Below the pieces are notes generated by a model that was not told the origin of the DNA, did no database searches, and worked only from the letters and a program-made list of their open reading frames with translations. This document shows positions 5,586 through 48,938 of a DNA stretch of 64,000 nucleotides, piece by piece. Within the stretch, counting starts at the first letter, position 1; every line of letters begins with the position of its first letter. Position numbers and translations under genes: made by a program. Source of the DNA: a virus. The stretch spans positions 12,695 through 76,694 of the IMG/VR virus record IMGVR_UViG_3300018080_000115. One strand, 5' to 3'.

Positions 5586-6014
5586 TCAGTGAACCTCACA
5601 ACTGCGTTCGCCAGTCAGCGTATCACGCATCAGAATCTTGGTCAGCGCCAACAGCACCTTGGCGTTTTCGATCGTATGCGCATCGGATTGTTCCAGGTTG
5701 ACATTGCGCCACTCTCCGCCAACCATCATCTGAAAAACGTACCGGTCATGCTCACCGTACACGACCACATACGTCGAATCATCGCCGTTTTCGCGTTCCA
5801 TGTCCATCACGATCAGAACACCGCTGTTCCTGCCGGTCAAATGAGGCATCGTGTGTTCCACGGTCAGATTCAACTGATTATGGAACCCGACCGACTTGTG
5901 ACGCAGCCCGTCGATCACCGGACACAGCCGGAACATGCCGCCGTGTGCCGCCTGATGAAACCCCTGGCTCAGATCCGCGCTACGGATCGCTTCGTTCGTG
6001 CTGATGGTCTTCAT
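5586..6014 (-). CDS. Hypothetical protein
   Basis: AAAGGACAGACC-ATG leader downstream of a sigma70 promoter. Confidence 0.7.
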   Translation of the reverse strand: MKTISTNEAIRSADLSQGFHQAAHGGMFRLCPVIDGLRHKSVGFHNQLNLTVEHTMPHLTGRNSGVLIVMDMERENGDDSTYVVVYGEHDRYVFQMMVGGEWRNVNLEQSDAHTIENAKVLLALTKILMRDTLTGERSCEVH

Positions 6015-6036: not shown

Positions 6037-6065
6037 ATTCTATCGATTCCGTGACTATCTGTCAA
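6037..6065 (-). promoter_or_regulatory. sigma70-type promoter
   Basis: TTGACA-N17-TAGAAT. Confidence 0.7.
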
Positions 6066-6087: not shown

Positions 6088-6543
6088 TTAGACTTTCAAA
6101 GCGTATCGAATCGCCGCGTTTGCAATCGCTTCTTTGGCATCTTCCGACAACACCAGATGTTGCGTTTTTGAGCCTCTGCTGGTGTTGATCTCTTCACGAC
6201 AGACATCAACCAAAAACCAGTTTTGCATGCCGCGCTCAATCGTGACCTTCGTTGCCGTTGCGGAATGCTGGTAACTGTTGCAGCCCACTCCATCCCACCA
6301 CTGAAACCGACACCCCTTCCGCAGATTCTTGGGACATCCGTGCTGTGTCAAATGTCTCTCAAGATCTTTAACCATCACCACCACCGCATCGGCGTCAATG
6401 GTGCGCGCCCGACATCCACGCTGCGCGTTATCGAGAGCATCCTGAATCTTCTTTTTTTCTGTCCAACAATTTTGATTTTCATGGTCCAGCCCTTTCCTTA
6501 TTCTGGCTTCAGCCTTGATCCTTGAGCCCGAACGCCTCAGCAA
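6088..6543 (-). CDS. Hypothetical phage protein (start uncertain)
   Basis: 151-codon ORF; no motif recognised. Confidence 0.55.
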   Translation of the reverse strand: MLRRSGSRIKAEARIRKGLDHENQNCWTEKKKIQDALDNAQRGCRARTIDADAVVVMVKDLERHLTQHGCPKNLRKGCRFQWWDGVGCNSYQHSATATKVTIERGMQNWFLVDVCREEINTSRGSKTQHLVLSEDAKEAIANAAIRYALKV

Positions 6544-6781
6544 GACTGAGGTTGCCGCTGCCGCAATCGATCATCTCTTGCACGTTCACAATCTCAGACT
6601 GATAGGCGCGATCGTAATGCCGTTCAACCATCCCCGCCTCATCACACCTGTGACAGACATAGTGTTCAGCGGTCTGTTCGCCGTCATCCATCATCCCTTT
6701 ATAGGCCACCGTCACGATCACATCCGCCGCACGCTCGCCACCACACATCTCACACCTCGGTCGTTCACGTCGCTCAGTCAT
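6509..6781 (-). CDS. Small CxxC..CxxC protein
   Basis: CEMC...CHRC. Confidence 0.55.
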   Translation of the reverse strand: MTERRERPRCEMCGGERAADVIVTVAYKGMMDDGEQTAEHYVCHRCDEAGMVERHYDRAYQSEIVNVQEMIDCGSGNLSLAEAFGLKDQG

Positions 6782-6960
6782 CTGCCTATCCTTTTGGTTC
6801 GTGTTTCACACCTTGACTCAAAACAATTGCACTTCGTATGCCAATTGTCAAGAATTCGTGACAAACCATACATCCTACCAGAATCACTAAAGAGTCAATA
6901 AAACACACATCTCAAAAAACAATCATCGTTTCGCGCACATCTTCGCAGCGCCCCCAAAAA

Positions 6961-7019
6961 GTGACAATATTCGTCACTCATGTGACACAAATTGTCACCA
7001 GAATGACGTCAATTGTCAC
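6961..7019. promoter_or_regulatory. Enhancer-like array A1: three 17-bp palindromes at 21-bp period
   Basis: GTGACAATATTCGTCAC (6961), GTGACACAAATTGTCAC (6982), ATGACGTCAATTGTCAC (7003). Confidence 0.8.
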
Positions 7020-7107
7020 TATTGAGACACAAAACGTCAACCACAAAAGTGCAACCATCAACAATAAACAGTAAGTCGAAAAACATCATTCAGAAAACAA
7101 CCAATAA

Positions 7108-7120
7108 AACCAACAACTTA
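7108..7120 (+). promoter_or_regulatory. IHF-like site between A1 and P1
   Basis: AACCAACAACTTA, one mismatch to WATCAANNNNTTR. Confidence 0.5.
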
Positions 7121-7157
7121 CAACAAAAACCAGAAATCTGTAACAGATACACCACAA

Positions 7158-7174
7158 TTGGCATGCTCCATGCT
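7158..7174 (+). promoter_or_regulatory. sigma54-type promoter P1
   Basis: TTGGCATGCTCCATGCT, GG-N10-GC. Confidence 0.7.
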
Positions 7175-7223: not shown

Positions 7224-7517
7224 ATGTCGAAGAAAATCGCAGAGCCCAAGTGTTACGGACAGTACAGCGGACAGTACAACGACGGTCAGCCTTGGACGCA
7301 AGAATGGTACACGTCCAAGAGCCGCGATGCCAGCAAGCGCACGCGCATGCTGCGCAAGCTGGGTTTCGCCTGCCGCAGCGAGTCCATGGGCTACCAGACG
7401 GGCACGGGCTACAACATGACGCTCATCAGCATCGAAGCTGCTGCACACGAGCTGCCGCCTGTCGAGATGAAGAATCGCACGCAGGAACGCAACGAAATCG
7501 CCGCGTTCTTCAACTAG
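7224..7517 (+). CDS. Small protein, CYG/W-EWY/LPPV family member 1
   Basis: GAAAGGACAATCCA-ATG; motif shared with four other ORFs. Confidence 0.75.
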   Translation: MSKKIAEPKCYGQYSGQYNDGQPWTQEWYTSKSRDASKRTRMLRKLGFACRSESMGYQTGTGYNMTLISIEAAAHELPPVEMKNRTQERNEIAAFFN

Positions 7518-8316: not shown

Positions 8317-9249
8317 ATGAAAAAAACAACAAAACCGGAAGACAGAGTCATCTTCGAATGCGTCTCAGGCAGTCACGCCTACGGCATGAACACGCCGGAA
8401 AGCGACACGGATCTGAGAGGCGTCTTCGTCCCTCCGCTCGACTGGTGCACGGGATTCATCAAGCGCGAAAGTCAATTCTCAGGAGACAGCAACGAAGATC
8501 GAATCATCTACGAGATCAGGAAGTTCTTCCGCATGGCCGCAGACGCCAACCCGAACATCCTGGAACTGCTGTGGATGCCGCAAGACTGCATTCTTCAATT
8601 CCACTCGTCTTGGAAACGCATCCAAGACCACCGAGAACTGTTCCTGAGCGCCAAAGTACGCCACACCTATACCGGCTACGCATTTTCACAACTGAATCGC
8701 ATGAAGCGTCACAGAGAATGGCTTCTCAATCCGCCTGAACGCGCTCCCAAATGGTCGGACTTCGGCATTCCAGACGAAGACGAAGCACGCCAAAAGATCA
8801 CCAAGGACATCAAACGCCTGAGCGAAGCCGGTATCGACCCCATGAAGACGCATGGCGAATTCGTGAAGAACAGCGGGTCCTACAAACGAGCTATGGAAAT
8901 CTGGCAACACTACCAGGAATGGAAGCTGAACCGGAACCCGAAGCGAGCGGAATGGGAAGCGAAATTCGGGTACGACTCGAAACACGCATCACACCTTGTT
9001 CGTCTTCTCAGACAGGGACACGAAATCATCACGACCGGCGAAGTCATCGTCAGACGACCGGACGCGAAAGAACTGCTTGCGATCCGCAACGAAGGGATTT
9101 GGTCCTATGACAAGCTGATCGCCTACGCCACAGAAATGGAAGAGAAGATCAAGAACGACGCAGCAGCGGAAACATGCAGTCTGCCGCAAAAGCCGAACAG
9201 AGAACTGCTCAACGAATTGTGTGCCTCAATCATCGAACGATTTCTGTGA
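8317..9249 (+). CDS. DNA polymerase beta-superfamily nucleotidyltransferase
   Basis: GSHAYGMNTPESDTDLRGVF; ANPNILELLW; YDSKHASHLVRLL. Confidence 0.9.
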   Translation: MKKTTKPEDRVIFECVSGSHAYGMNTPESDTDLRGVFVPPLDWCTGFIKRESQFSGDSNEDRIIYEIRKFFRMAADANPNILELLWMPQDCILQFHSSWKRIQDHRELFLSAKVRHTYTGYAFSQLNRMKRHREWLLNPPERAPKWSDFGIPDEDEARQKITKDIKRLSEAGIDPMKTHGEFVKNSGSYKRAMEIWQHYQEWKLNRNPKRAEWEAKFGYDSKHASHLVRLLRQGHEIITTGEVIVRRPDAKELLAIRNEGIWSYDKLIAYATEMEEKIKNDAAAETCSLPQKPNRELLNELCASIIERFL

Positions 9250-10307: not shown

Positions 10308-10336
10308 TTGACAATCTGTGACGCGCACCGTACAAT
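10308..10336 (+). promoter_or_regulatory. sigma70-type promoter
   Basis: TTGACA-ATCTGT..N17-TACAAT; CAGATTGTCAA/TTGACAATCTG inverted repeat 10281-10318. Confidence 0.8.
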
Positions 10337-10371: not shown

Positions 10372-10965
10372 ATGCCGCAAACCACAACCGCCGACACCGA
10401 AAAGATGATCACAGAAAAGATTCTATTTCCTGTACTTGTTCTTGAAACGCTTTTCAACGGCGGATTCGTCTCCAATGAAAACGACACGGTTGAAGAACCG
10501 CAGTTTTTTCTGTTGGACAAAGACAAGAACAAAATCGTCCCAATCCCATTCGAAAAAACAAACGACAAGATTTTCTTCAGATGGCTATATTCGAATGTTC
10601 TTGTCGTAACAGATTCTCCCACTCTGCTCCAAATGCGCGTCTACATCACGGACACGACATGGATGAGCATCGCCCAACACATGACAGATGCATTCGAACG
10701 TCTTGTGTCCTTCAACAACGAATGCCACCACATTGACATCGAACAGCTCTGCAACAACGCAATGCAGGAAGTTCGAATCACAACGGCCTCATATATCGCC
10801 GGTTCCTGTCCACACCCGATCATTCGGCGATACAAGGTGTTTCCGTCCGAACGTCATCCTCAAGGACCATTCGCTATGACCAGTGTTCCGCACCCCGGTT
10901 CGAACAAAGAAGCCGAACACATGCACTGGAAGGAAGTCGTGAACACAATCACAGGCGAAGAATGA
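10372..10965 (+). CDS. Hypothetical protein, ETLFNGG family member 2
   Basis: AAAGGACAGACC leader; LETLFNGG. Confidence 0.7.
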   Translation: MPQTTTADTEKMITEKILFPVLVLETLFNGGFVSNENDTVEEPQFFLLDKDKNKIVPIPFEKTNDKIFFRWLYSNVLVVTDSPTLLQMRVYITDTTWMSIAQHMTDAFERLVSFNNECHHIDIEQLCNNAMQEVRITTASYIAGSCPHPIIRRYKVFPSERHPQGPFAMTSVPHPGSNKEAEHMHWKEVVNTITGEE

Positions 10966-11186
10966 AGAAAGAAAATCAAAGCGAACGTCGAGTCAACCTC
11001 AAGCGGATTCTCGAAGATCCCGACCAGCGCAGAAAGCTGATGGTCACAACCATCATCGCAACACAAGCGCGTGAAGGAATCACAACGACCAGAGAACAAG
11101 CCGAAGCCGCTTATGATGCTGTCCAAACCCAGGAGAGACGGACGAAATCAAAACCGCCCATTGGAAGGATATCGTTGCCGAACTGA
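10962..11186 (+). CDS. Hypothetical protein
   Basis: ATGA overlap with the upstream gene. Confidence 0.6.
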   Translation: MKKENQSERRVNLKRILEDPDQRRKLMVTTIIATQAREGITTTREQAEAAYDAVQTQERRTKSKPPIGRISLPN

Positions 11187-11199
11187 AAGAAGAAAGCCG

Positions 11200-11490
11200 A
11201 TGAGGAAATATCGAGAAGTCTGCGACATCTGCCGGAAGAGATCAAAAGGGCTCAAGACTCTTCCGCTTCGAATGGATAACAGCCATCAAGTCTCGGAAGG
11301 TTTTGTCGTCTGCATGGAATGCAGAAAAGACCTTCCGCCCGAATTCCAAAACAGACTCGTACGCACCGAAACCACGCATCAAGATCATCTGGACGCAATG
11401 GCGAAGCCGAAAAACGAAGTGTTGGCCGAAGCATTGAAGCTTCTCGGCAAAATGAACATTCAGCTCAGCAAAAAACGAAAAAAGTCTTGA
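11200..11490 (+). CDS. Zinc-finger protein, tandem paralogue A
   Basis: VCDICR..VCMECR.DLP.EFQN. Confidence 0.7.
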   Translation: MRKYREVCDICRKRSKGLKTLPLRMDNSHQVSEGFVVCMECRKDLPPEFQNRLVRTETTHQDHLDAMAKPKNEVLAEALKLLGKMNIQLSKKRKKS

Positions 11491-11515
11491 CAATTTGTAA
11501 CAAGTCAAGTACAAT
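11487..11515 (+). promoter_or_regulatory. sigma70-type promoter; -35 overlaps the upstream TGA stop
   Basis: TTGACA-N17-TACAAT. Confidence 0.8.
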
Positions 11516-15216: not shown

Positions 15217-17628
15217 TCATTCATTTCCACAGCTTGTGCTTCCTGCTCTTCTTCTGTCGTGTTCAAGAGCCATTTCAAACAATCTGCGGGCATGTGGAAA
15301 AATCAATTGACATTCCGCGCACACAAAGGTCGTGCCACGATCGGGGCAATTTATGCATATAGCATTATTCCTTGTAAACAGCGAAATTAATCTTTCTACA
15401 TTTTGATCTCGTGTCTCTTCAGCCCGTATTTCAAATCTTCTTCCGATGTTGTTCAACGGATAGTGAGTACAAAAATCACAATACAAATAACCACTGTCGA
15501 TCAACGGCATCCCGCGATTAGGGCATGACCGGCAATGTCCATTGGCATCCATTTCTATTCTGCTGCATGCAGCAAAAAAACGATTACAGGAAGCACAATA
15601 CGAATTGCCGTCGATATCATATGCGCCACGCAGATCACACAACCGACAATGTTCGTGCATCGTGACGCAAACATCTCTTACGAGATCCGGACGCAAAAAT
15701 GATCTAAGATCAAACTCATCCGGACCAGGAACAGGAATTGAAGAAGAGGGAGCATTCGACGATTCCAGTTCATTCGGCGAGCAATGAAGGTTCGGATTAT
15801 CAGGACATGCATCGCAGTATGCGATTCCGCTGACAGGAGCATGTTGATCACGATCACGACATGACCGGCATCTCTCAGGAACCTCTTCTTCACGTTCAGA
15901 TTCAACCGTTGTTCTTCTTTGTGAATAATGAATGCAGTTGCTGCAACAGGCCAACGGAACAGTTGGTCCGGCATGCGGTTCATCCATCTGATAATCGGCG
16001 AAACGGCATGAATGGCACAGGTTTCTTGTGGTCACAGTCATATTCGAAGAAGGAACGTACCGATCGATTTCGATGAGACTGCGCATGGTAGCACAATTCA
16101 TACAGTACAATATGCTGTTTCTATTACGTGCGCCGCGAAGAGTGCACGCTGCACACTGTTCAGCTGCAGCCGCAAGTTCCAGCACGCTTCTCTCAATCGT
16201 CTGCCTTCGTTCCCGCAGCTGCACCGCTCTTCTGCTCCATTGACCTTCGGCTTCGTTTTCGTCGAACCCATCCATTCTTCTTTCAGTAAGAGACTGCTGC
16301 GGAACGGCTGCAGAAACGATTGATTCGGAATGATCCGAAGAACGATTCGCCCTCTGTCGCGGACCATTGGCATAGGTGAGCACGCTGCTCACGCGATCAC
16401 TGATCTTGCCGCCGTACTGCTCGACCGTCAGCCGGTGCCGCTTGCGGAGATCCTTGATGAATTGCTCAGTCTGGCCGCTGCGTCCCTTTCTCCGATCGGC
16501 CCGCAGGTATCCGAGAAGATGCGCGAATGTTCTGCCCATGCCGCCTTCATCCTTCGGCGCACGATGCCTCAGCATGATGCCGCCCATGAGTGCGCGATGG
16601 ATCAGCTTCTGATGGAGCCAGACCCATCGATGGATTTCGGCATGCTGGAACGTCCCATGAAGCTGACGGACTTCGATGGTGCCGCGACCATGATTGCGCA
16701 CTCCTGTCAAGTTCAGCTTGCAATACCGTTCGTTTTCCAACATGCGATCATCCATGCGTTCGACTTCGATCGCCCGCACGTCCCTCTTGGAGCCTTCGGG
16801 CGTGTTGATCCAATTCGACGTTACGCGCCGCGTGCTGCGACAATAGGTGTTGATCGACCGTCGACGATCCTTGGACACCAATGTGTCGAGCTGCGCCTCA
16901 TACTCCGCATAGACGTCGAAAACGCGCTTGATGGCGATGGACCGCTGATCATGGTTGAGCACATCCCAGCCGTTGTGGCCGGAACGCAACAGGATTTCGT
17001 TTTCCCGTCCCGGATTGACCTTCAGATTGACGTTGCGGAAGAAGCTTCTGACGCCGAAGTGGACATGCGTGCCGCATCGGTTGTTCTGCTTGCACTTCAG
17101 CTTCCTGAGCGCTTTGCACATGCGCTTGATGACTTCCAACCCATCCTGCCCATGCAGAATGGGACTGACCAGTTCCAGCCGTCCCACGTGGTTCCGAGCA
17201 TGGGTTCGCACGCTGGAGTCTTCCTTCAGCTTCCAAACTCCGTAATTGCCGTCAGCGTATTGATGATCCGAATAGTTTGCCGGTTTGACCCCCAACATGG
17301 CTTTTTGAGTCAGACGCTTGGCAAAGCGCATGCGATAGAGCAGATCTGCGTTTCCCAAACAACTGCTGTGCTCATGGACACGCATGTCAACATTGTCGTC
17401 ATCCGAGAAGATCCAAGTGAAGCCGCTCTCCTCTTCTTCAATTTCGACAATGCGATTACGCGGGTACTCGAATTCACGCGGACCCAAGAATTCGATTTCA
17501 ACGCCGAAGGTGATGTTTTCGCTGAAGTTCGACGTGTATGGATGCAGGTTGACCCTGATCGCATCCTCGCTGATCGTGCGGCCCGTGGTCATCAGCTTGC
17601 TGGTCTTGACTTGGATTTTGTCGCTCAT
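15217..17628 (-). CDS. Amidoligase paralogue 2 fused to a C-terminal region with six Cys4 repeats
   Basis: TFGVEIEF, ELVSPIL, CGTHVHFG, YCKLNL, GTIEVRQLHGT; then six CxxC-x(n)-CxxC units. Confidence 0.85.
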   Translation of the reverse strand: MSDKIQVKTSKLMTTGRTISEDAIRVNLHPYTSNFSENITFGVEIEFLGPREFEYPRNRIVEIEEEESGFTWIFSDDDNVDMRVHEHSSCLGNADLLYRMRFAKRLTQKAMLGVKPANYSDHQYADGNYGVWKLKEDSSVRTHARNHVGRLELVSPILHGQDGLEVIKRMCKALRKLKCKQNNRCGTHVHFGVRSFFRNVNLKVNPGRENEILLRSGHNGWDVLNHDQRSIAIKRVFDVYAEYEAQLDTLVSKDRRRSINTYCRSTRRVTSNWINTPEGSKRDVRAIEVERMDDRMLENERYCKLNLTGVRNHGRGTIEVRQLHGTFQHAEIHRWVWLHQKLIHRALMGGIMLRHRAPKDEGGMGRTFAHLLGYLRADRRKGRSGQTEQFIKDLRKRHRLTVEQYGGKISDRVSSVLTYANGPRQRANRSSDHSESIVSAAVPQQSLTERRMDGFDENEAEGQWSRRAVQLRERRQTIERSVLELAAAAEQCAACTLRGARNRNSILYCMNCATMRSLIEIDRYVPSSNMTVTTRNLCHSCRFADYQMDEPHAGPTVPLACCSNCIHYSQRRTTVESEREEEVPERCRSCRDRDQHAPVSGIAYCDACPDNPNLHCSPNELESSNAPSSSIPVPGPDEFDLRSFLRPDLVRDVCVTMHEHCRLCDLRGAYDIDGNSYCASCNRFFAACSRIEMDANGHCRSCPNRGMPLIDSGYLYCDFCTHYPLNNIGRRFEIRAEETRDQNVERLISLFTRNNAICINCPDRGTTFVCAECQLIFPHARRLFEMALEHDRRRAGSTSCGNE

Positions 17629-17686: not shown

Positions 17687-17715
17687 ATTGTACACAATGC
17701 GTTACAGATTGTCAA
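17687..17715 (-). promoter_or_regulatory. sigma70-type promoter
   Basis: TTGACA-ATCTGTAA..N17-TACAAT. Confidence 0.8.
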
Positions 17716-20058: not shown

Positions 20059-20076
20059 TTGCAGTTTGTGTGCCAA
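20059..20076 (-). promoter_or_regulatory. sigma54-type promoter P2
   Basis: TTGGCACACAAACTGCA, GG-N10-GC. Confidence 0.75.
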
Positions 20077-20169
20077 ACATCACAGTTTGTCTGATAAATC
20101 TGTAAGTAGCTGAAAACTCTTATCTATTCCCGAACAGTGCTGTTGTTTAGGAGACGAAAGCCGGTTGAG

Positions 20170-20250
20170 TTGACGCTATTGGTCACTAGTTTGTGACAAT
20201 TTTCGTCGCTCGGTGACAATTTGTGTCACAAGAGTGACAATTTTCGTCAT
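20170..20250. promoter_or_regulatory. Enhancer-like array A2: 3-4 palindromes
   Basis: GTGACAATTTTCGTCGC (20193), GTGACAATTTGTGTCAC (20213), GTGACAATTTTCGTCAT (20234), weaker TTGACGCTATTGGTCAC (20170). Confidence 0.8.
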
Positions 20251-20307: not shown

Positions 20308-20356
20308 ACCATGTCGGGACGCCGTTTTTGTGTTCGAAGCGGCGTCCCGACATGGT
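20308..20356. repeat. Perfect 17-bp inverted repeat made of two GGGACGCCG motifs
   Basis: ACCATGTCGGGACGCCG-N15-CGGCGTCCCGACATGGT. Confidence 0.9.
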
Positions 20357-21609: not shown

Positions 21610-21638
21610 TTGACAGTTTGTAACAGAAGCGATACAAT
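21610..21638 (+). promoter_or_regulatory. sigma70-type promoter
   Basis: TTGACA-GTTTGTAA..N17-TACAAT. Confidence 0.75.
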
Positions 21639-25316: not shown

Positions 25317-25667
25317 TCACGAAGCAATCATGCTTTGGGGAGGTAGGCGAAAACCGGTGGGGCAGTAGAAGATTACTTCAACAGCCCGAAGACCGCAGGT
25401 TGTATTGGCCAGAACAACCGCTCTCGTCTCGTCAGCGTACAGGATGAAGTATCCGAAGTCATCATAAATGCACAGCTTTTGCAGTCCATGCACCGAGATG
25501 CCTTCCTGGTCGGCTTCATTGTACCGCTGGCGAAAGATGGAACGAGTGTCCAAGATCAGTTCGGTCAAAGAAGCCGGATTCGTCAGCTTCTCGTAGTCGC
25601 TGCGGTCACGCGTTCCAAGTACGAAGCCCATTTTGAGCAGGTTCTTGAAATCTGAGAAGTGTGTCAT
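25317..25667 (-). CDS. Hypothetical protein
   Basis: 116-codon ORF in the P3 operon. Confidence 0.55.
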   Translation of the reverse strand: MTHFSDFKNLLKMGFVLGTRDRSDYEKLTNPASLTELILDTRSIFRQRYNEADQEGISVHGLQKLCIYDDFGYFILYADETRAVVLANTTCGLRAVEVIFYCPTGFRLPPQSMIAS

Positions 25668-25910
25668 GACCGATTCTATCTTCTTTTTGATATTGATGTT
25701 TATAATTCGAAATTGTTTTTCAGATTCATGACAATCACACTGATTTCATTTTCCGGCACACCTTCAATGTTACGAACCACTTCAAGCAACTCTTCGATTG
25801 CAATACACAACGCACTGCAATTACTGTCGTACTTGTTGAGTTTTTCTTGCATCAGCTCAATTTCATTCATCTCGTTCTTCCTTTCAAGTATTTTTAGTCT
25901 GTCCTTGCTG

Positions 25911-26153
25911 TTAGTGAGTGTCGAATCCAACGCTGATCGTCGGATGCAGCTTGACGGGCGGCAATTCGCAGACCGGCGCGTCGACATGAATGAAACTCAT
26001 GAGGCACTTCGGCGTGTACCTGAAGCTTGTGTGCATCATGTAGGCTTCGATGCCCACGCTCTTGAGCTGAAGAATCCGATCATTGAGCGCCCTGTCTTCG
26101 GCCCTATATGATTCGATCGTCCAGTTTTTCATATCCTGTTGTCCGTAACACAT
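25911..26153 (-). CDS. Small protein, CYG/W-EWY/LPPV family member 2
   Basis: GAAAGGA SD; MCYGQ..WTIESY..RILQLKSVG..LPPVKL. Confidence 0.75.
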   Translation of the reverse strand: MCYGQQDMKNWTIESYRAEDRALNDRILQLKSVGIEAYMMHTSFRYTPKCLMSFIHVDAPVCELPPVKLHPTISVGFDTH

Positions 26154-26194: not shown

Positions 26195-26473
26195 CTACTG
26201 CACTTCGACAGCCCACGGGCCGTTGCAGTTGGCGACAATGATGATTTTGTCCTTGTCTTCATGCTCGAACATCGCATAGTTCCCGCAATCGAAGAGACCC
26301 AAGAAGTCGCAGTCCATCTCCGACAATTCTTCCTTGACCGAAACTCCGTCGACTCGATCGTCATCATCACCGACCGGGAAGCCTTCGCCCGCATCATTGC
26401 GCTCATGAAACGCAATGCGGATATCGGTGTCATTGGTCCGGGACATCAACTGTTCGTACGAGATCTTCTTCAT
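26195..26473 (-). CDS. Acidic hypothetical protein, first gene after P3
   Basis: GAAAGGACAGACCA-ATG. Confidence 0.75.
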   Translation of the reverse strand: MKKISYEQLMSRTNDTDIRIAFHERNDAGEGFPVGDDDDRVDGVSVKEELSEMDCDFLGLFDCGNYAMFEHEDKDKIIIVANCNGPWAVEVQ

Positions 26474-26510: not shown

Positions 26511-26528
26511 TAGCATGAACCGTGCCAT
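26511..26528 (-). promoter_or_regulatory. sigma54-type promoter P3
   Basis: ATGGCACGGTTCATGCTA, GG-N10-GC. Confidence 0.8.
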
Positions 26529-26645
26529 TTGTCAAACATGTGTGACAAACATCTGCAACATATCGAAATCACTTATGCAAACAACACACAACGGCGTCCC
26601 GACACCGTTACGGCCGCACCCGCCTGTACCCTAAACAGCTCCGAA

Positions 26646-26704
26646 GCGACCATAATTGTCACTCATGTGACACAAATTGTCACAAAGATGACGAAAATTG
26701 TCAT
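26646..26704. promoter_or_regulatory. Enhancer-like array A3 shared by divergent P3 and P4
   Basis: GCGACCATAATTGTCAC (26646), GTGACACAAATTGTCAC (26667), ATGACGAAAATTGTCAT (26688); 21-bp period. Confidence 0.8.
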
Positions 26705-26819
26705 TGAGTTTAAGCACGGCAGGCATTTGAAGCGTTTCACAGCTTGAACCAAAGAAAAAAACATCAATAACATCACAAGTTTACGCTTTTATCGCCTATT
26801 TGTGCTGAATTTGTGACAG

Positions 26820-26836
26820 TTGGCACGGTCTATGCT
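26820..26836 (+). promoter_or_regulatory. sigma54-type promoter P4
   Basis: TTGGCACGGTCTATGCT, GG-N10-GC. Confidence 0.8.
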
Positions 26837-26879: not shown

Positions 26880-27131
26880 ATGACGACGTGCTACGGAAAA
26901 TATGAACTGGCCAACGGCTGGACGTCAGAGTGGTATCGAACGGCTGATTGGCAGGACGTGAAGAAGCGGATTCGCCAGCTCAAGGAAGAAGGCATCCATG
27001 TGAGCGCCGCTCACATGGGCTTCAAGCACGCGACCCGCGCCCACATGACCCTGCTGCACATTCACGCACCCGTCAGCGCCGTTCTGCTGCCCGCTGAGAC
27101 CCTGCTCGTCTGCCCGGATGGACCCTATTGA
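26880..27131 (+). CDS. Small protein, CYG/W-EWY/LPPV family member 3
   Basis: GAAAGGACAGACCC-ATG; TCYGKY..WTSEWY..KRIRQLKEEG. Confidence 0.75.
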   Translation: MTTCYGKYELANGWTSEWYRTADWQDVKKRIRQLKEEGIHVSAAHMGFKHATRAHMTLLHIHAPVSAVLLPAETLLVCPDGPY

Positions 27132-27158: not shown

Positions 27159-27389
27159 ATGACCATCATCTGCAAAAGCCAAAAATGCCAATCCGGCCTC
27201 ATCGGCATCAATCCGCGCATCGTGGAACAGTATGACAATGTCTGTATGGCTCGTGCGCGTATTCGTCAGCTCCTGAATCACGATGTTCACGTGCACGGCT
27301 ACTGCTTCATGAGCAAGTGGGATGACGGAAGCGCATCACTCCTCATCTACCATCCGAAGCACATGCTGCCGCCCGTCCAGATCGGATGA
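27159..27389 (+). CDS. Small protein, LPPV family member 4 (diverged)
   Basis: GAAAGGACCGACCC-ATG; ARIRQL..LPPVQI. Confidence 0.65.
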   Translation: MTIICKSQKCQSGLIGINPRIVEQYDNVCMARARIRQLLNHDVHVHGYCFMSKWDDGSASLLIYHPKHMLPPVQIG

Positions 27390-27446: not shown

Positions 27447-27731
27447 ATGGCACGTTCCTACCGCAAGCCCTCCTACTTCGTCTGCAACGGTGCCGACCCC
27501 GCGACCGGCAAGCGCGTCACCAGCCGCTACATCCGCCATCGCGTCAAGCAGGAGCTGCGCAACGACGGCGCGGACTTCGACTTTGTCGACATCCGCGACA
27601 AGAATCGCGGCAACAGCGGTTCCAAGAACATAAATGACTGCTGGGACTACTTCGGCGACGGCAAGGCCATCCCTGAACGTGTCCGCATCGAACACGACGG
27701 CAAGACCGTCAGCAAGCTGTCCCGCAAGTAG
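27447..27731 (+). CDS. Hypothetical phage protein (MARSYRKP..)
   Basis: AAGGAG SD; followed by a terminator. Confidence 0.7.
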   Translation: MARSYRKPSYFVCNGADPATGKRVTSRYIRHRVKQELRNDGADFDFVDIRDKNRGNSGSKNINDCWDYFGDGKAIPERVRIEHDGKTVSKLSRK

Positions 27732-27808: not shown

Positions 27809-28090
27809 ATGATGACCGATCCCTTGAACCCCGAAACCCCTCGAAGCGACGCCGCCGCGCTGCCCGCATGCCTTCGTCAAGAACCCAGAGATGTCGGCAC
27901 GCTCACGCTGGAATGGTACAAGGACCGCAAGGAAGTCCTGAAGCGCATCGCTCAGATCAAGGCTGCCGGTTTCGACACCAACATGCGCTGCTTCTTCGAT
28001 GAAGTGGATGACCAAGGCACCATCAAGATGGAACTGTTCTTCCCTTGCTTCTTGCTTCCTCCGGTTGAAATCGTCGGACAACCATCATGA
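27809..28090 (+). CDS. Small protein, LPPV family member 5
   Basis: GAAAGGACCGAACC-ATG; LEWY..KRIAQIKAAG..LLPPVEI. Confidence 0.7.
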   Translation: MMTDPLNPETPRSDAAALPACLRQEPRDVGTLTLEWYKDRKEVLKRIAQIKAAGFDTNMRCFFDEVDDQGTIKMELFFPCFLLPPVEIVGQPS

Positions 28091-28458: not shown

Positions 28459-29448
28459 ATGGAACCTATGGCAATGCCCGGTAACGGAACAACGCACCAA
28501 TTTCAGAACCGAGACCCATACCACCCGAATTTCATCTTCGAGGAAAGCGAGCATGGCGTGTACGTCGCCGTGCCCGACCAGTTCATCATCTTCCTCTACG
28601 CCCGCGACATCAACGACTTCATCCTGCCTCAGATCTATTTGGCTCTCAAGGATTCCAAAACGATGCTGATGAGCCAGAGCCGCAATAGACGGCTTCTGAT
28701 GAATCCGCCTGATCACACTGCGCTGATTGCTGCACCGAAGGGATCTCCTCTGCGGGAAACCGCCATGCTGCACGTCTACCGCACCCCGTCCTGCGGCTTC
28801 ATGTTGGATCTCGACCCGATGAGCGCCAAGAACGACAAGAAGGAAATGAAGGTCGTCTTTCATAACGTTGCAGACATCGAACGAGCATATTCCATACTGG
28901 CTAATTATGCCTATTCCCCGTTCGACAACGAATACAGCAGCTTCTGCCTGCCGCCGTCTCTGCTCGACCGGTTCATCAAGATGATTCACGAACCGCACAA
29001 GAAGGACCCCAACAACGACAAGCTGATTGCGGATCATGAAATCTTTCAAATGCATGTCGGCTGCTACGTAGACATGCTGAACAGCATCTTGCTCACCCAA
29101 ACGCTGCCGAAATTCCCCACAGTCGGCATGGGGGAGTGTGAAATCATCCTGGCGATGATGTCGAAGAACCAGAAGACCGGCAAGCCCTACCGGCCGAATC
29201 GAATCGAGCGCGAAATCAAAGAGCTGTTTGAGCGGATGGCGCGACGCTACGTTCCTCCGACATTCTCGTTCATGATGTTCCGTTCCGTCGTCAGCATGAT
29301 GGAGATTCTGAACATGAAAATCAGGCTCTATATCGCGCATACGACCACAGAACTGCTCGACCCGCGATCGGAACAAGGCGTGCTGTGCGATTTGGACTGT
29401 CAAAACTGCAAACAAAACACGTGCAACCAGAACAAAAAAAATCATTGA
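28459..29448 (+). CDS. Hypothetical protein flanked by direct repeats
   Basis: GAAGGA SD; 329 aa; C-terminal CDLDCQNCKQNTC. Confidence 0.75.
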   Translation: MEPMAMPGNGTTHQFQNRDPYHPNFIFEESEHGVYVAVPDQFIIFLYARDINDFILPQIYLALKDSKTMLMSQSRNRRLLMNPPDHTALIAAPKGSPLRETAMLHVYRTPSCGFMLDLDPMSAKNDKKEMKVVFHNVADIERAYSILANYAYSPFDNEYSSFCLPPSLLDRFIKMIHEPHKKDPNNDKLIADHEIFQMHVGCYVDMLNSILLTQTLPKFPTVGMGECEIILAMMSKNQKTGKPYRPNRIEREIKELFERMARRYVPPTFSFMMFRSVVSMMEILNMKIRLYIAHTTTELLDPRSEQGVLCDLDCQNCKQNTCNQNKKNH

Positions 29449-48909: not shown

Positions 48910-48938
48910 TTGACAATCTGTAATGGACTTGTTACAGT
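48910..48938 (+). promoter_or_regulatory. sigma70-type promoter
   Basis: TTGACA-ATCTGTAA..N17-TACAGT. Confidence 0.7.

Follow-up and report, generated by a model that had tools for sequence, protein, structure and literature searches.

Two divergent promoters of the -24/-12 type, placed on either side of a row of phased palindromes at positions 26,511 to 26,836, raise the question of why a virus would carry what looks like a bacterial sigma-54 enhancer, and which activator would operate it. The window, that is, the whole stretch of DNA analysed (64,000 nucleotides), was taken from a linear IMG/VR virus record of 138,362 bp (bases 12695-76694), and coordinates refer to the window unless marked as genome positions. 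The contig has open ends and an estimated completeness of ~70% (CheckV). Judged by its genes, the phage is a distant, uncultivated T4-like myovirus: Pfam matches include a Gp23-type capsid protein, an S77 prohead protease, gp32 and a T4 baseplate protein, and among the replication and metabolism genes a RecA/UvsX-like protein, a DnaB-like helicase, a primase, ThyX and a DnaE-type polymerase. Its capsid protein shares no more than 37% identity with that of any phage isolate, and a megablast search with 6 kb of the phage found no relatives among isolated phages, so that the host is not inferable via close relatives. The sole sequencing run containing the phage DNA in full is a sediment metagenome, possibly its source, and the search found no RNA runs containing it.

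The locus lies in the first ~42 kb of the contig, an early-type region in which small unannotated genes are accompanied by three amidoligase paralogues and an RlaP-type nucleotidyltransferase. A distinct class of near-consensus sigma-70 promoters, also represented in this early-type region, TTGACA-ATCTGTAAC-N8-TACAAT, is present in six copies against 0.36 expected by chance (6037-6065 and 17687-17715 on the minus strand; 10308-10336, 11487-11515, 21610-21638 and 48910-48938), and these sites are probably the ordinary early promoters of the phage.

Promoter P3 (TGGCACGGTTCATGCT; 26512-26527, minus strand) and promoter P4 (TGGCACGGTCTATGCT; 26821-26836, plus strand) both have the exact GG-N10-GC spacing that was originally claimed for them, and they have TGCTACTNTTACA in common. 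The divergent pair shares array A3 (26647-26703), which consists of three boxes centred at 26654, 26675 and 26696 with a 21-bp period; the -24 elements are 118-120 bp from these palindromes. All three boxes had been described as RTGAC-N7-GTCAY palindromes, which is exact for the copies at 26667 and 26688, whereas the copy at 26646 has one mismatch (GCGAC).

The original prediction placed the same arrangement at 6961-7174 and 20059-20250, where we find arrays (6961-7019 and 20213-20250) together with promoters P1 and P2. Its total of four promoters and three arrays was too low: a scan of the contig gives six to seven promoters and four arrays, the additional elements being promoter PB, array A0 with promoter PA, fourth boxes in arrays A1 and A2, and a weak promoter PA'. 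PB (TGGCATACGAAGTGCA; 6828-6843, minus strand) is divergent from P1 (TGGCATGCTCCATGCT; 7159-7174, plus strand), and both share array A1 (6962-7039), with four boxes centred at 6969, 6990, 7011 and 7032 at an exact 21-bp period. Array A2 (20171-20249; four boxes, centred at 20178, 20201, 20221 and 20242) lies upstream of P2 (TGGCACACAAACTGCA; 20060-20075, minus strand). The four boxes of array A0 (genome 12102-12181) are located just upstream of the window, and PA (genome 12264), also outside it, has the same 16 bases as P2. The candidate seventh promoter, PA' (TGGTCTGATGTTTGCA; genome 12009-12024, minus strand), is divergent from PA, shares array A0 and precedes a 79-aa gene, but the -24 half is weak. 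Together the four arrays contain 15 boxes spaced 19-23 bp apart, mostly 21, and three of the arrays (A0, A1 and A3) sit between divergent promoters.

The association of promoters with boxes is exclusive in both directions. The strict pattern TGGCAY-N6-TGCW occurs six times in the whole 138-kb contig, each time with an exact TGAC-N7-GTCA box at -230 to -100; conversely, every array is linked to a GG-N10-GC site. The proposed reading as sigma-54 promoters with enhancers, for which a lack of linkage elsewhere in the genome would have been damaging, is therefore supported. The contig contains 17 exact boxes, where simulations gave a mean of 3.2; for 11 of the 17 another box lies within 25 bp, compared with 0.01 in simulation. 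Among 200 first-order Markov genomes, the pairing of promoter and box occurred in none.

The geometry is also conserved. With the predicted start site taken 12 nt downstream of the -12 GC, and box centres measured to this start, the boxes are found at -152, -173, -194 and -215 for PB, at -153, -174, -195 and -216 for P1, at -153, -174 and -195 for P3, at -151, -172 and -193 for P4, at -129, -152, -172 and -193 for P2, and at -116, -139, -158 and -181 for PA. The overall range is thus -116 to -216, and centres recur at equal positions (-151 to -153, -172 to -174 and -193 to -195) across different units. From these positions it follows that A1 and A3 are symmetric between their divergent promoters, and the 21-bp period implies that all boxes share one face of the helix.

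When the six control regions are aligned, the boxes, the TGGCA..TGC elements, a short element abutting the -24 sequence and a Shine-Dalgarno leader ending in AAAGGACAGACC-ATG are seen to be kept, while the spacers of ~100 bp are unrelated. Conservation of the elements between unrelated spacers speaks for selection on the elements and against recent copying of a cassette. TGGCA and TGC at sigma-54 spacing are the sole elements invariant across all six promoters, and at each of the six sites GG and GC, 10 nt apart, are placed before a gene with a short leader. The predicted leaders are 28-41 nt long, for PB if the ATG at 6781 is the start. A matrix trained solely on bacterial pilin promoters ranks P3 (20.4 bits), P4 (19.3 bits) and P1 (19.0 bits) as the best three sites in the phage genome. 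The scores of P2, PA and PB fall within the range of shuffled sequence, so that the weight of these three comes from their arrays. IHF-like sites in the spacers show no excess over background (~1 per kb).

Two further sequence elements accompany the control regions. TTTGTCAC-N6-TTGACAA abuts the -24 TGG in PB, P3 and PA' and is degenerate in P4 (6844-6870, 26528-26553 and 26800-26820; genome 12025-12050); it resembles two PilR half-sites in everted order, and provides a sigma-70-like -35 hexamer. Seven copies of GGCGTCCCGAC with no more than one mismatch are present, where 0.7 would be expected (among others at 20313-20351 and 26593-26603); the sequence gives a long hairpin next to array A2 and, in the spacer between A3 and P3, a hairpin resembling a terminator.

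The genes placed downstream of these promoters are mostly small. The predicted P3 unit begins with a gene for a 92-aa protein of no family (26195-26473, minus strand), preceded by the conserved leader GAAAGGACAGACC-ATG, and continues with 25911-26153, 25700-25870 and 25317-25667. The first gene of the P4 unit (26880-27131, plus strand; 83 aa) belongs to a small-protein family with the signature CYG..W..EWY, and is followed by 27159-27389, 27447-27731, 27809-28090 and 28459-29448. PB is predicted to head 6509-6781, 6088-6543 and 5586-6014, and P1 a unit with another member of the small-protein family (7224-7517) and the RlaP-type nucleotidyltransferase (8317-9249). Two amidoligase paralogues are predicted under P2 (18845-20008, minus strand; Amidoligase_2, E 6e-25) and under PA with array A0 (genome 12327-13412, reaching window position 718). 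The small-protein family, CYG..W..EWY...LPPV in full, has five members (7224-7517, 25911-26153, 26880-27131, 27159-27389 and 27809-28090), all of them in units headed by P1, P3 or P4 and none with a Pfam or PHROG match. The predicted regulon would therefore comprise two amidoligase paralogues, this five-member family, the RlaP-type nucleotidyltransferase and other small ORFs, all in the early-type region.

PilR combines a response regulator with an AAA+ enhancer-binding protein; its usual role is to switch on the type IV pilin gene from a sigma-54 promoter. The PilS-PilR/sigma-54 system controls the pilin gene pilA in Pseudomonas aeruginosa, Myxococcus xanthus and Geobacter sulfurreducens (PMC6058289, PMC6211767, PMC2725144). 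Pairs of boxes at a distance of 21 bp were found at 74 loci in a scan of 185,579 species genomes. At several of them the boxes directly follow a gene encoding GESGTGKE and GAFTGA motifs, and precede a strong sigma-54 promoter and a prepilin gene. At one such locus (L042) Pfam matches give the order 6TM_PilS kinase, Response_reg-Sigma54_activat-HTH_8 regulator, boxes, TGGCACGTTATCTGCT, and a gene starting MKRTQKGFTLIELMI; a second (L105) has the same order with two N_methyl pilins. In many Veillonella genomes (L046, L047, L050, L057, L064, L069, L070, L085 and L099), a tandem box pair lies ~140-170 bp from an identical TGGTATGTTAGTTGCT, which may represent a conserved sigma-54-type unit in Negativicutes.

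Because these 74 loci were chosen by the box pattern itself, we complemented them with an unbiased set of 33 pilS-pilR loci, which came from 61 genomes of a single class and were selected solely by a match to the PilS family. A pilin gene adjoins pilR in 17 of the 33 loci. TGGCAY-N5-xTGCW precedes the pilin gene in 16 of these 17, and in 12 of the 17 the interval from the pilR stop codon to the promoter contains one or more exact TGAC-N7-GTCA, often two, 19-21 bp apart. Box centres range from -132 to -241 (14 boxes, measured in ten of the 12 loci). Elsewhere in the ~180 kb sampled, no exact box was found. Searched in full, four bacterial genomes (2.9-6.1 Mb) each have the tandem box a single time, at pilR-pilA, and a reversed control pattern has no matches. 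A smaller sample from a second phylum (Desulfobacterota-type) is in agreement, with the exact box in three of six pilin-linked loci; it was discarded as a hint to the host, as it contains too few clean pilS-pilR-pilin loci.

The phage arrays are, as far as sequence can tell, built from the dyad that marks these pilin enhancers, with a matching promoter type and distance: TGAC-N7-GTCA in tandem, ~100-250 bp upstream of a sigma-54 promoter. The genes that they would control are of another kind, since the contig shows no prepilin motif in any frame, and neither PilS nor a bacterial enhancer-binding protein (bEBP) was found there. The phage system would thus work like a pilA enhancer, yet outside any pil locus. 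We hypothesize that the arrays are enhancers made of host PilR sites, and that host PilR and host sigma-54 drive the phage operons, which we consider probable. The published PilR site of P. aeruginosa, TGT-N11-ACA with GTCT/TGTC elements, is not literally the phage dyad (PMC8035640, PMC6058289), and NCBIfam has no PilR model, the bacterial regulators reaching no equivalog cut-off; for these reasons the assignment to PilR is based on synteny and on the exclusivity of the boxes.

A host enhancer-binding protein other than PilR, for example a paralogue with the same dyad specificity, might act on the arrays, in which case the specificity would be shared and not the regulator. Tandem GTGAC-N7-GTCAC pairs are indeed found outside pilR-pilA in many genomes, including taxa in which no pilin genes were seen nearby, and the Desulfobacterota-type sample, with an exact box in three of six loci, gave fewer clean pilS-pilR-pilin loci. 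The uniqueness of the tandem box to pilR-pilA in the four whole genomes, and its confinement to the spot between pilR and pilin across the 33 sampled loci, make such an activator unlikely.

The original prediction left undecided whether the activator was a hijacked host protein or encoded outside the window. The remainder of the contig favours the host. Six-frame searches of the 138-kb, ~70%-complete contig gave zero matches to Sigma54_activat, the sigma-54 DBD and CBD, HTH_8 and the HU/IHF family, and the 78 largest phage proteins include no bEBP-type ATPase (Pfam). The same module, with two or more boxes 66-190 bp ahead of a sigma-54 promoter, recurs in other viral contigs, at least five in all (L010/G001, L116, L028/G127, L029/G128 and L035), which have no BLAST-detectable proteins in common with the phage. 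No bEBP was found in these contigs, among them G128, which is 97% complete, and G127, which has terminal repeats. Without an activator gene in the contig, in G127 or in G128, a host activator is the economical reading. The arrays might still answer to a phage-encoded PilR-like protein or other enhancer-binding ATPase of equal DNA specificity: the contig ends are open, many phage proteins are unannotated, and the gene could lie in the ~30% of the genome that is missing. We regard this as improbable in view of the empty searches of the contig and of the two more complete phages; the literature searched, moreover, reports no phage-encoded bEBP.

The modules of the other viral contigs precede various genes. 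In G001 they are a small gene, a distant amidoligase and a class-II amidotransferase, and in G127, a 38-kb phage, a reverse transcriptase gene (L322:13840-15195; RVT_1, E 4e-19) lies behind three PilR-type boxes and TGGCACGGGGCTTGCA. A protein search with the amidoligase found no relatives. Among 80 viral amidoligase loci (405 kb) collected by profile search, none has the pairing of boxes and promoter, and the module is therefore not general to phage amidoligases; the set doubles as a negative control. A looser promoter pattern was abandoned for viral contigs, since 11 of its 12 matches were coincidences in coding sequence. In metagenomes, two related contigs have the promoter 25-mer without boxes, and gave no lead to the host. 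Another viral contig (L123:398-591, minus strand) carries seven TGGCAY-N5-TTGCW elements in tandem, at intervals of 26-28 bp, with PilR-like boxes after them.

The promoters could also be read as sigma-70 promoters with an extended -10 and a partial -35, in which case the palindromes would be operators for a phage repressor or activator, and TGGCAC-N5-TGC incidental. P3 can be written as TTGACA-N17-TACTGT and P4 as GTGACA-N17-TG.TACTAT, TGCTACTNT is conserved in P1, P3, P4 and the unrelated phage G001, and several promoters have a TTGACA-like hexamer directly next to the -24 element. Nevertheless, we think a sigma-70 origin quite unlikely. It is the sigma-54 elements alone that are invariant across the six promoters; P1, P2 and PA are without a usable -35; the evident sigma-70 promoters of the phage belong to the different class described above; and boxes at -150 to -195 are too distant for ordinary sigma-70 activation. 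No match to HTH_8, the one DNA-binding family screened for in this respect, points to an operator-binding protein of the phage. At P3 and P4 the -12 GC abuts the -10-like hexamer, which places the predicted sigma-54 and sigma-70 starts ~1-3 nt apart, and the position of the transcription start site therefore cannot separate the two at these promoters.

That the arrays are replication-origin iterons or partition sites, intergenic by chance, is very improbable, since the four arrays are separate, each keeps a fixed distance to sigma-54 promoters, three of them are symmetric between divergent promoters, and no initiator gene adjoins them, even if similar arrays of eight GTGACC-N5-GGTCAC in Achromobacter-type sequences have no sigma-54 promoter nearby. 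These repeats are found in Achromobacter-type prophages, within a replication-initiator-like gene or behind it (L118:5220-5420, L072:1180-1375 and five loci of similar make-up), and are probably origin iterons. Such look-alikes mean that the palindrome alone is not diagnostic of PilR arrays.

If host PilR and sigma-54 are indeed used, the exclusive pairing, the geometry and the bacterial counterpart suggest the following sequence of events, for a host assumed to possess rpoN, PilR and a pilA promoter. Host sigma-54 RNA polymerase would sit as a closed complex on the six, perhaps seven, -24/-12 promoters, and dimers of PilR would fill the three to four boxes, which face the same side of the helix and are centred near -152, -173 and -194. 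The dimers would assemble into an active oligomer, which would loop to the promoter and open it using ATP. A0, A1 and A3, located between divergent promoters, would serve both sides. The sequence elements, their pairing and geometry, their likeness to bacterial pilR-pilA regions and the lack of an activator gene in the contig are observed, whereas PilR binding, the dependence on rpoN and the timing of expression are inferred.

Type IV pili are a common phage receptor. We speculate, as a doubtful but conceivable extension, that the phage both ties its programme to the pilus-sensing circuit of the host and disturbs this circuit: with about fifteen boxes per genome copy, multiplied by replication, the arrays might power the phage operons while drawing PilR off pilA and shutting down pilin synthesis, and the sigma-70-like hexamers at P3 and P4 might be a fail-safe for when sigma-54 or PilR is inactive. 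Were this so, and the pilus the receptor, pilin shutdown could exclude superinfection or prevent progeny from adsorbing to dying cells.

Phages are known either to redirect the host sigma-70 polymerase or to come with a polymerase or sigma factor of their own. To wire a whole set of phage genes to host sigma-54 via a specific two-component regulator would, if confirmed, be a different kind of transcription takeover, in which phage expression depends on the state of PilS-PilR, the circuit that produces type IV pili. Mutants in rpoN and pilR would then be predicted to resist such phages in transcription as well as in adsorption. The presence of the module in at least five unrelated viral contigs suggests that the strategy may be general but overlooked. 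A compact, strongly phased enhancer of the PilR type might also serve as a tool, and as a signature for predicting hosts with PilSR and sigma-54.

The classical bEBP enhancers with phased tandem sites are those of NtrC at glnAp2, NorR (three sites) at norV and DctD at dctA. As in these systems, multiple dimer sites on one helical face, acting from more than 100 bp upstream, would promote oligomerisation of the ATPase; unlike in these systems, the spacers have no IHF site above chance, and the sequence of the phage site differs. Among phages, the nearest precedent for the use of sigma-54 is Pseudomonas phage YuA, reported to use sigma-54 and sigma-70 promoters (PMC10914365 citing Ceyssens 2008), for which no enhancer or activator is described. 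The YuA record AM749441 annotates three '-24/-12 consensus' promoters, obtained from a promoter trap. The annotated fragments (L194:8392-8570, 10888-11035 and 17152-17312) contain neither TGGCAY-N5-TTGC nor PilR-type boxes, and the first contains TTGACC-N17-TACAAT, so that YuA was set aside as a precedent for the present arrangement. In agreement with the original prediction, the literature searched gave no phage regulon driven by a host bEBP and no published phage case like the one described here.

The closest counterpart is therefore the bacterial PilS-PilR system at pilA. Both systems have a -24/-12 promoter of the form TGGCAC-N5-xTGCW, with tandem TGAC-N7-GTCA dyads about two helical turns apart upstream of it, and the distances of the boxes from the start overlap (116-216 bp in the phage and 132-241 bp at bacterial pilA). 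Unlike its bacterial counterpart, the phage copy drives no pilin or pilus gene and has no pilS or pilR nearby. The phage also has three to four boxes per array as against one to two in bacteria, and four arrays, three of them bidirectional, that serve six to seven promoters.
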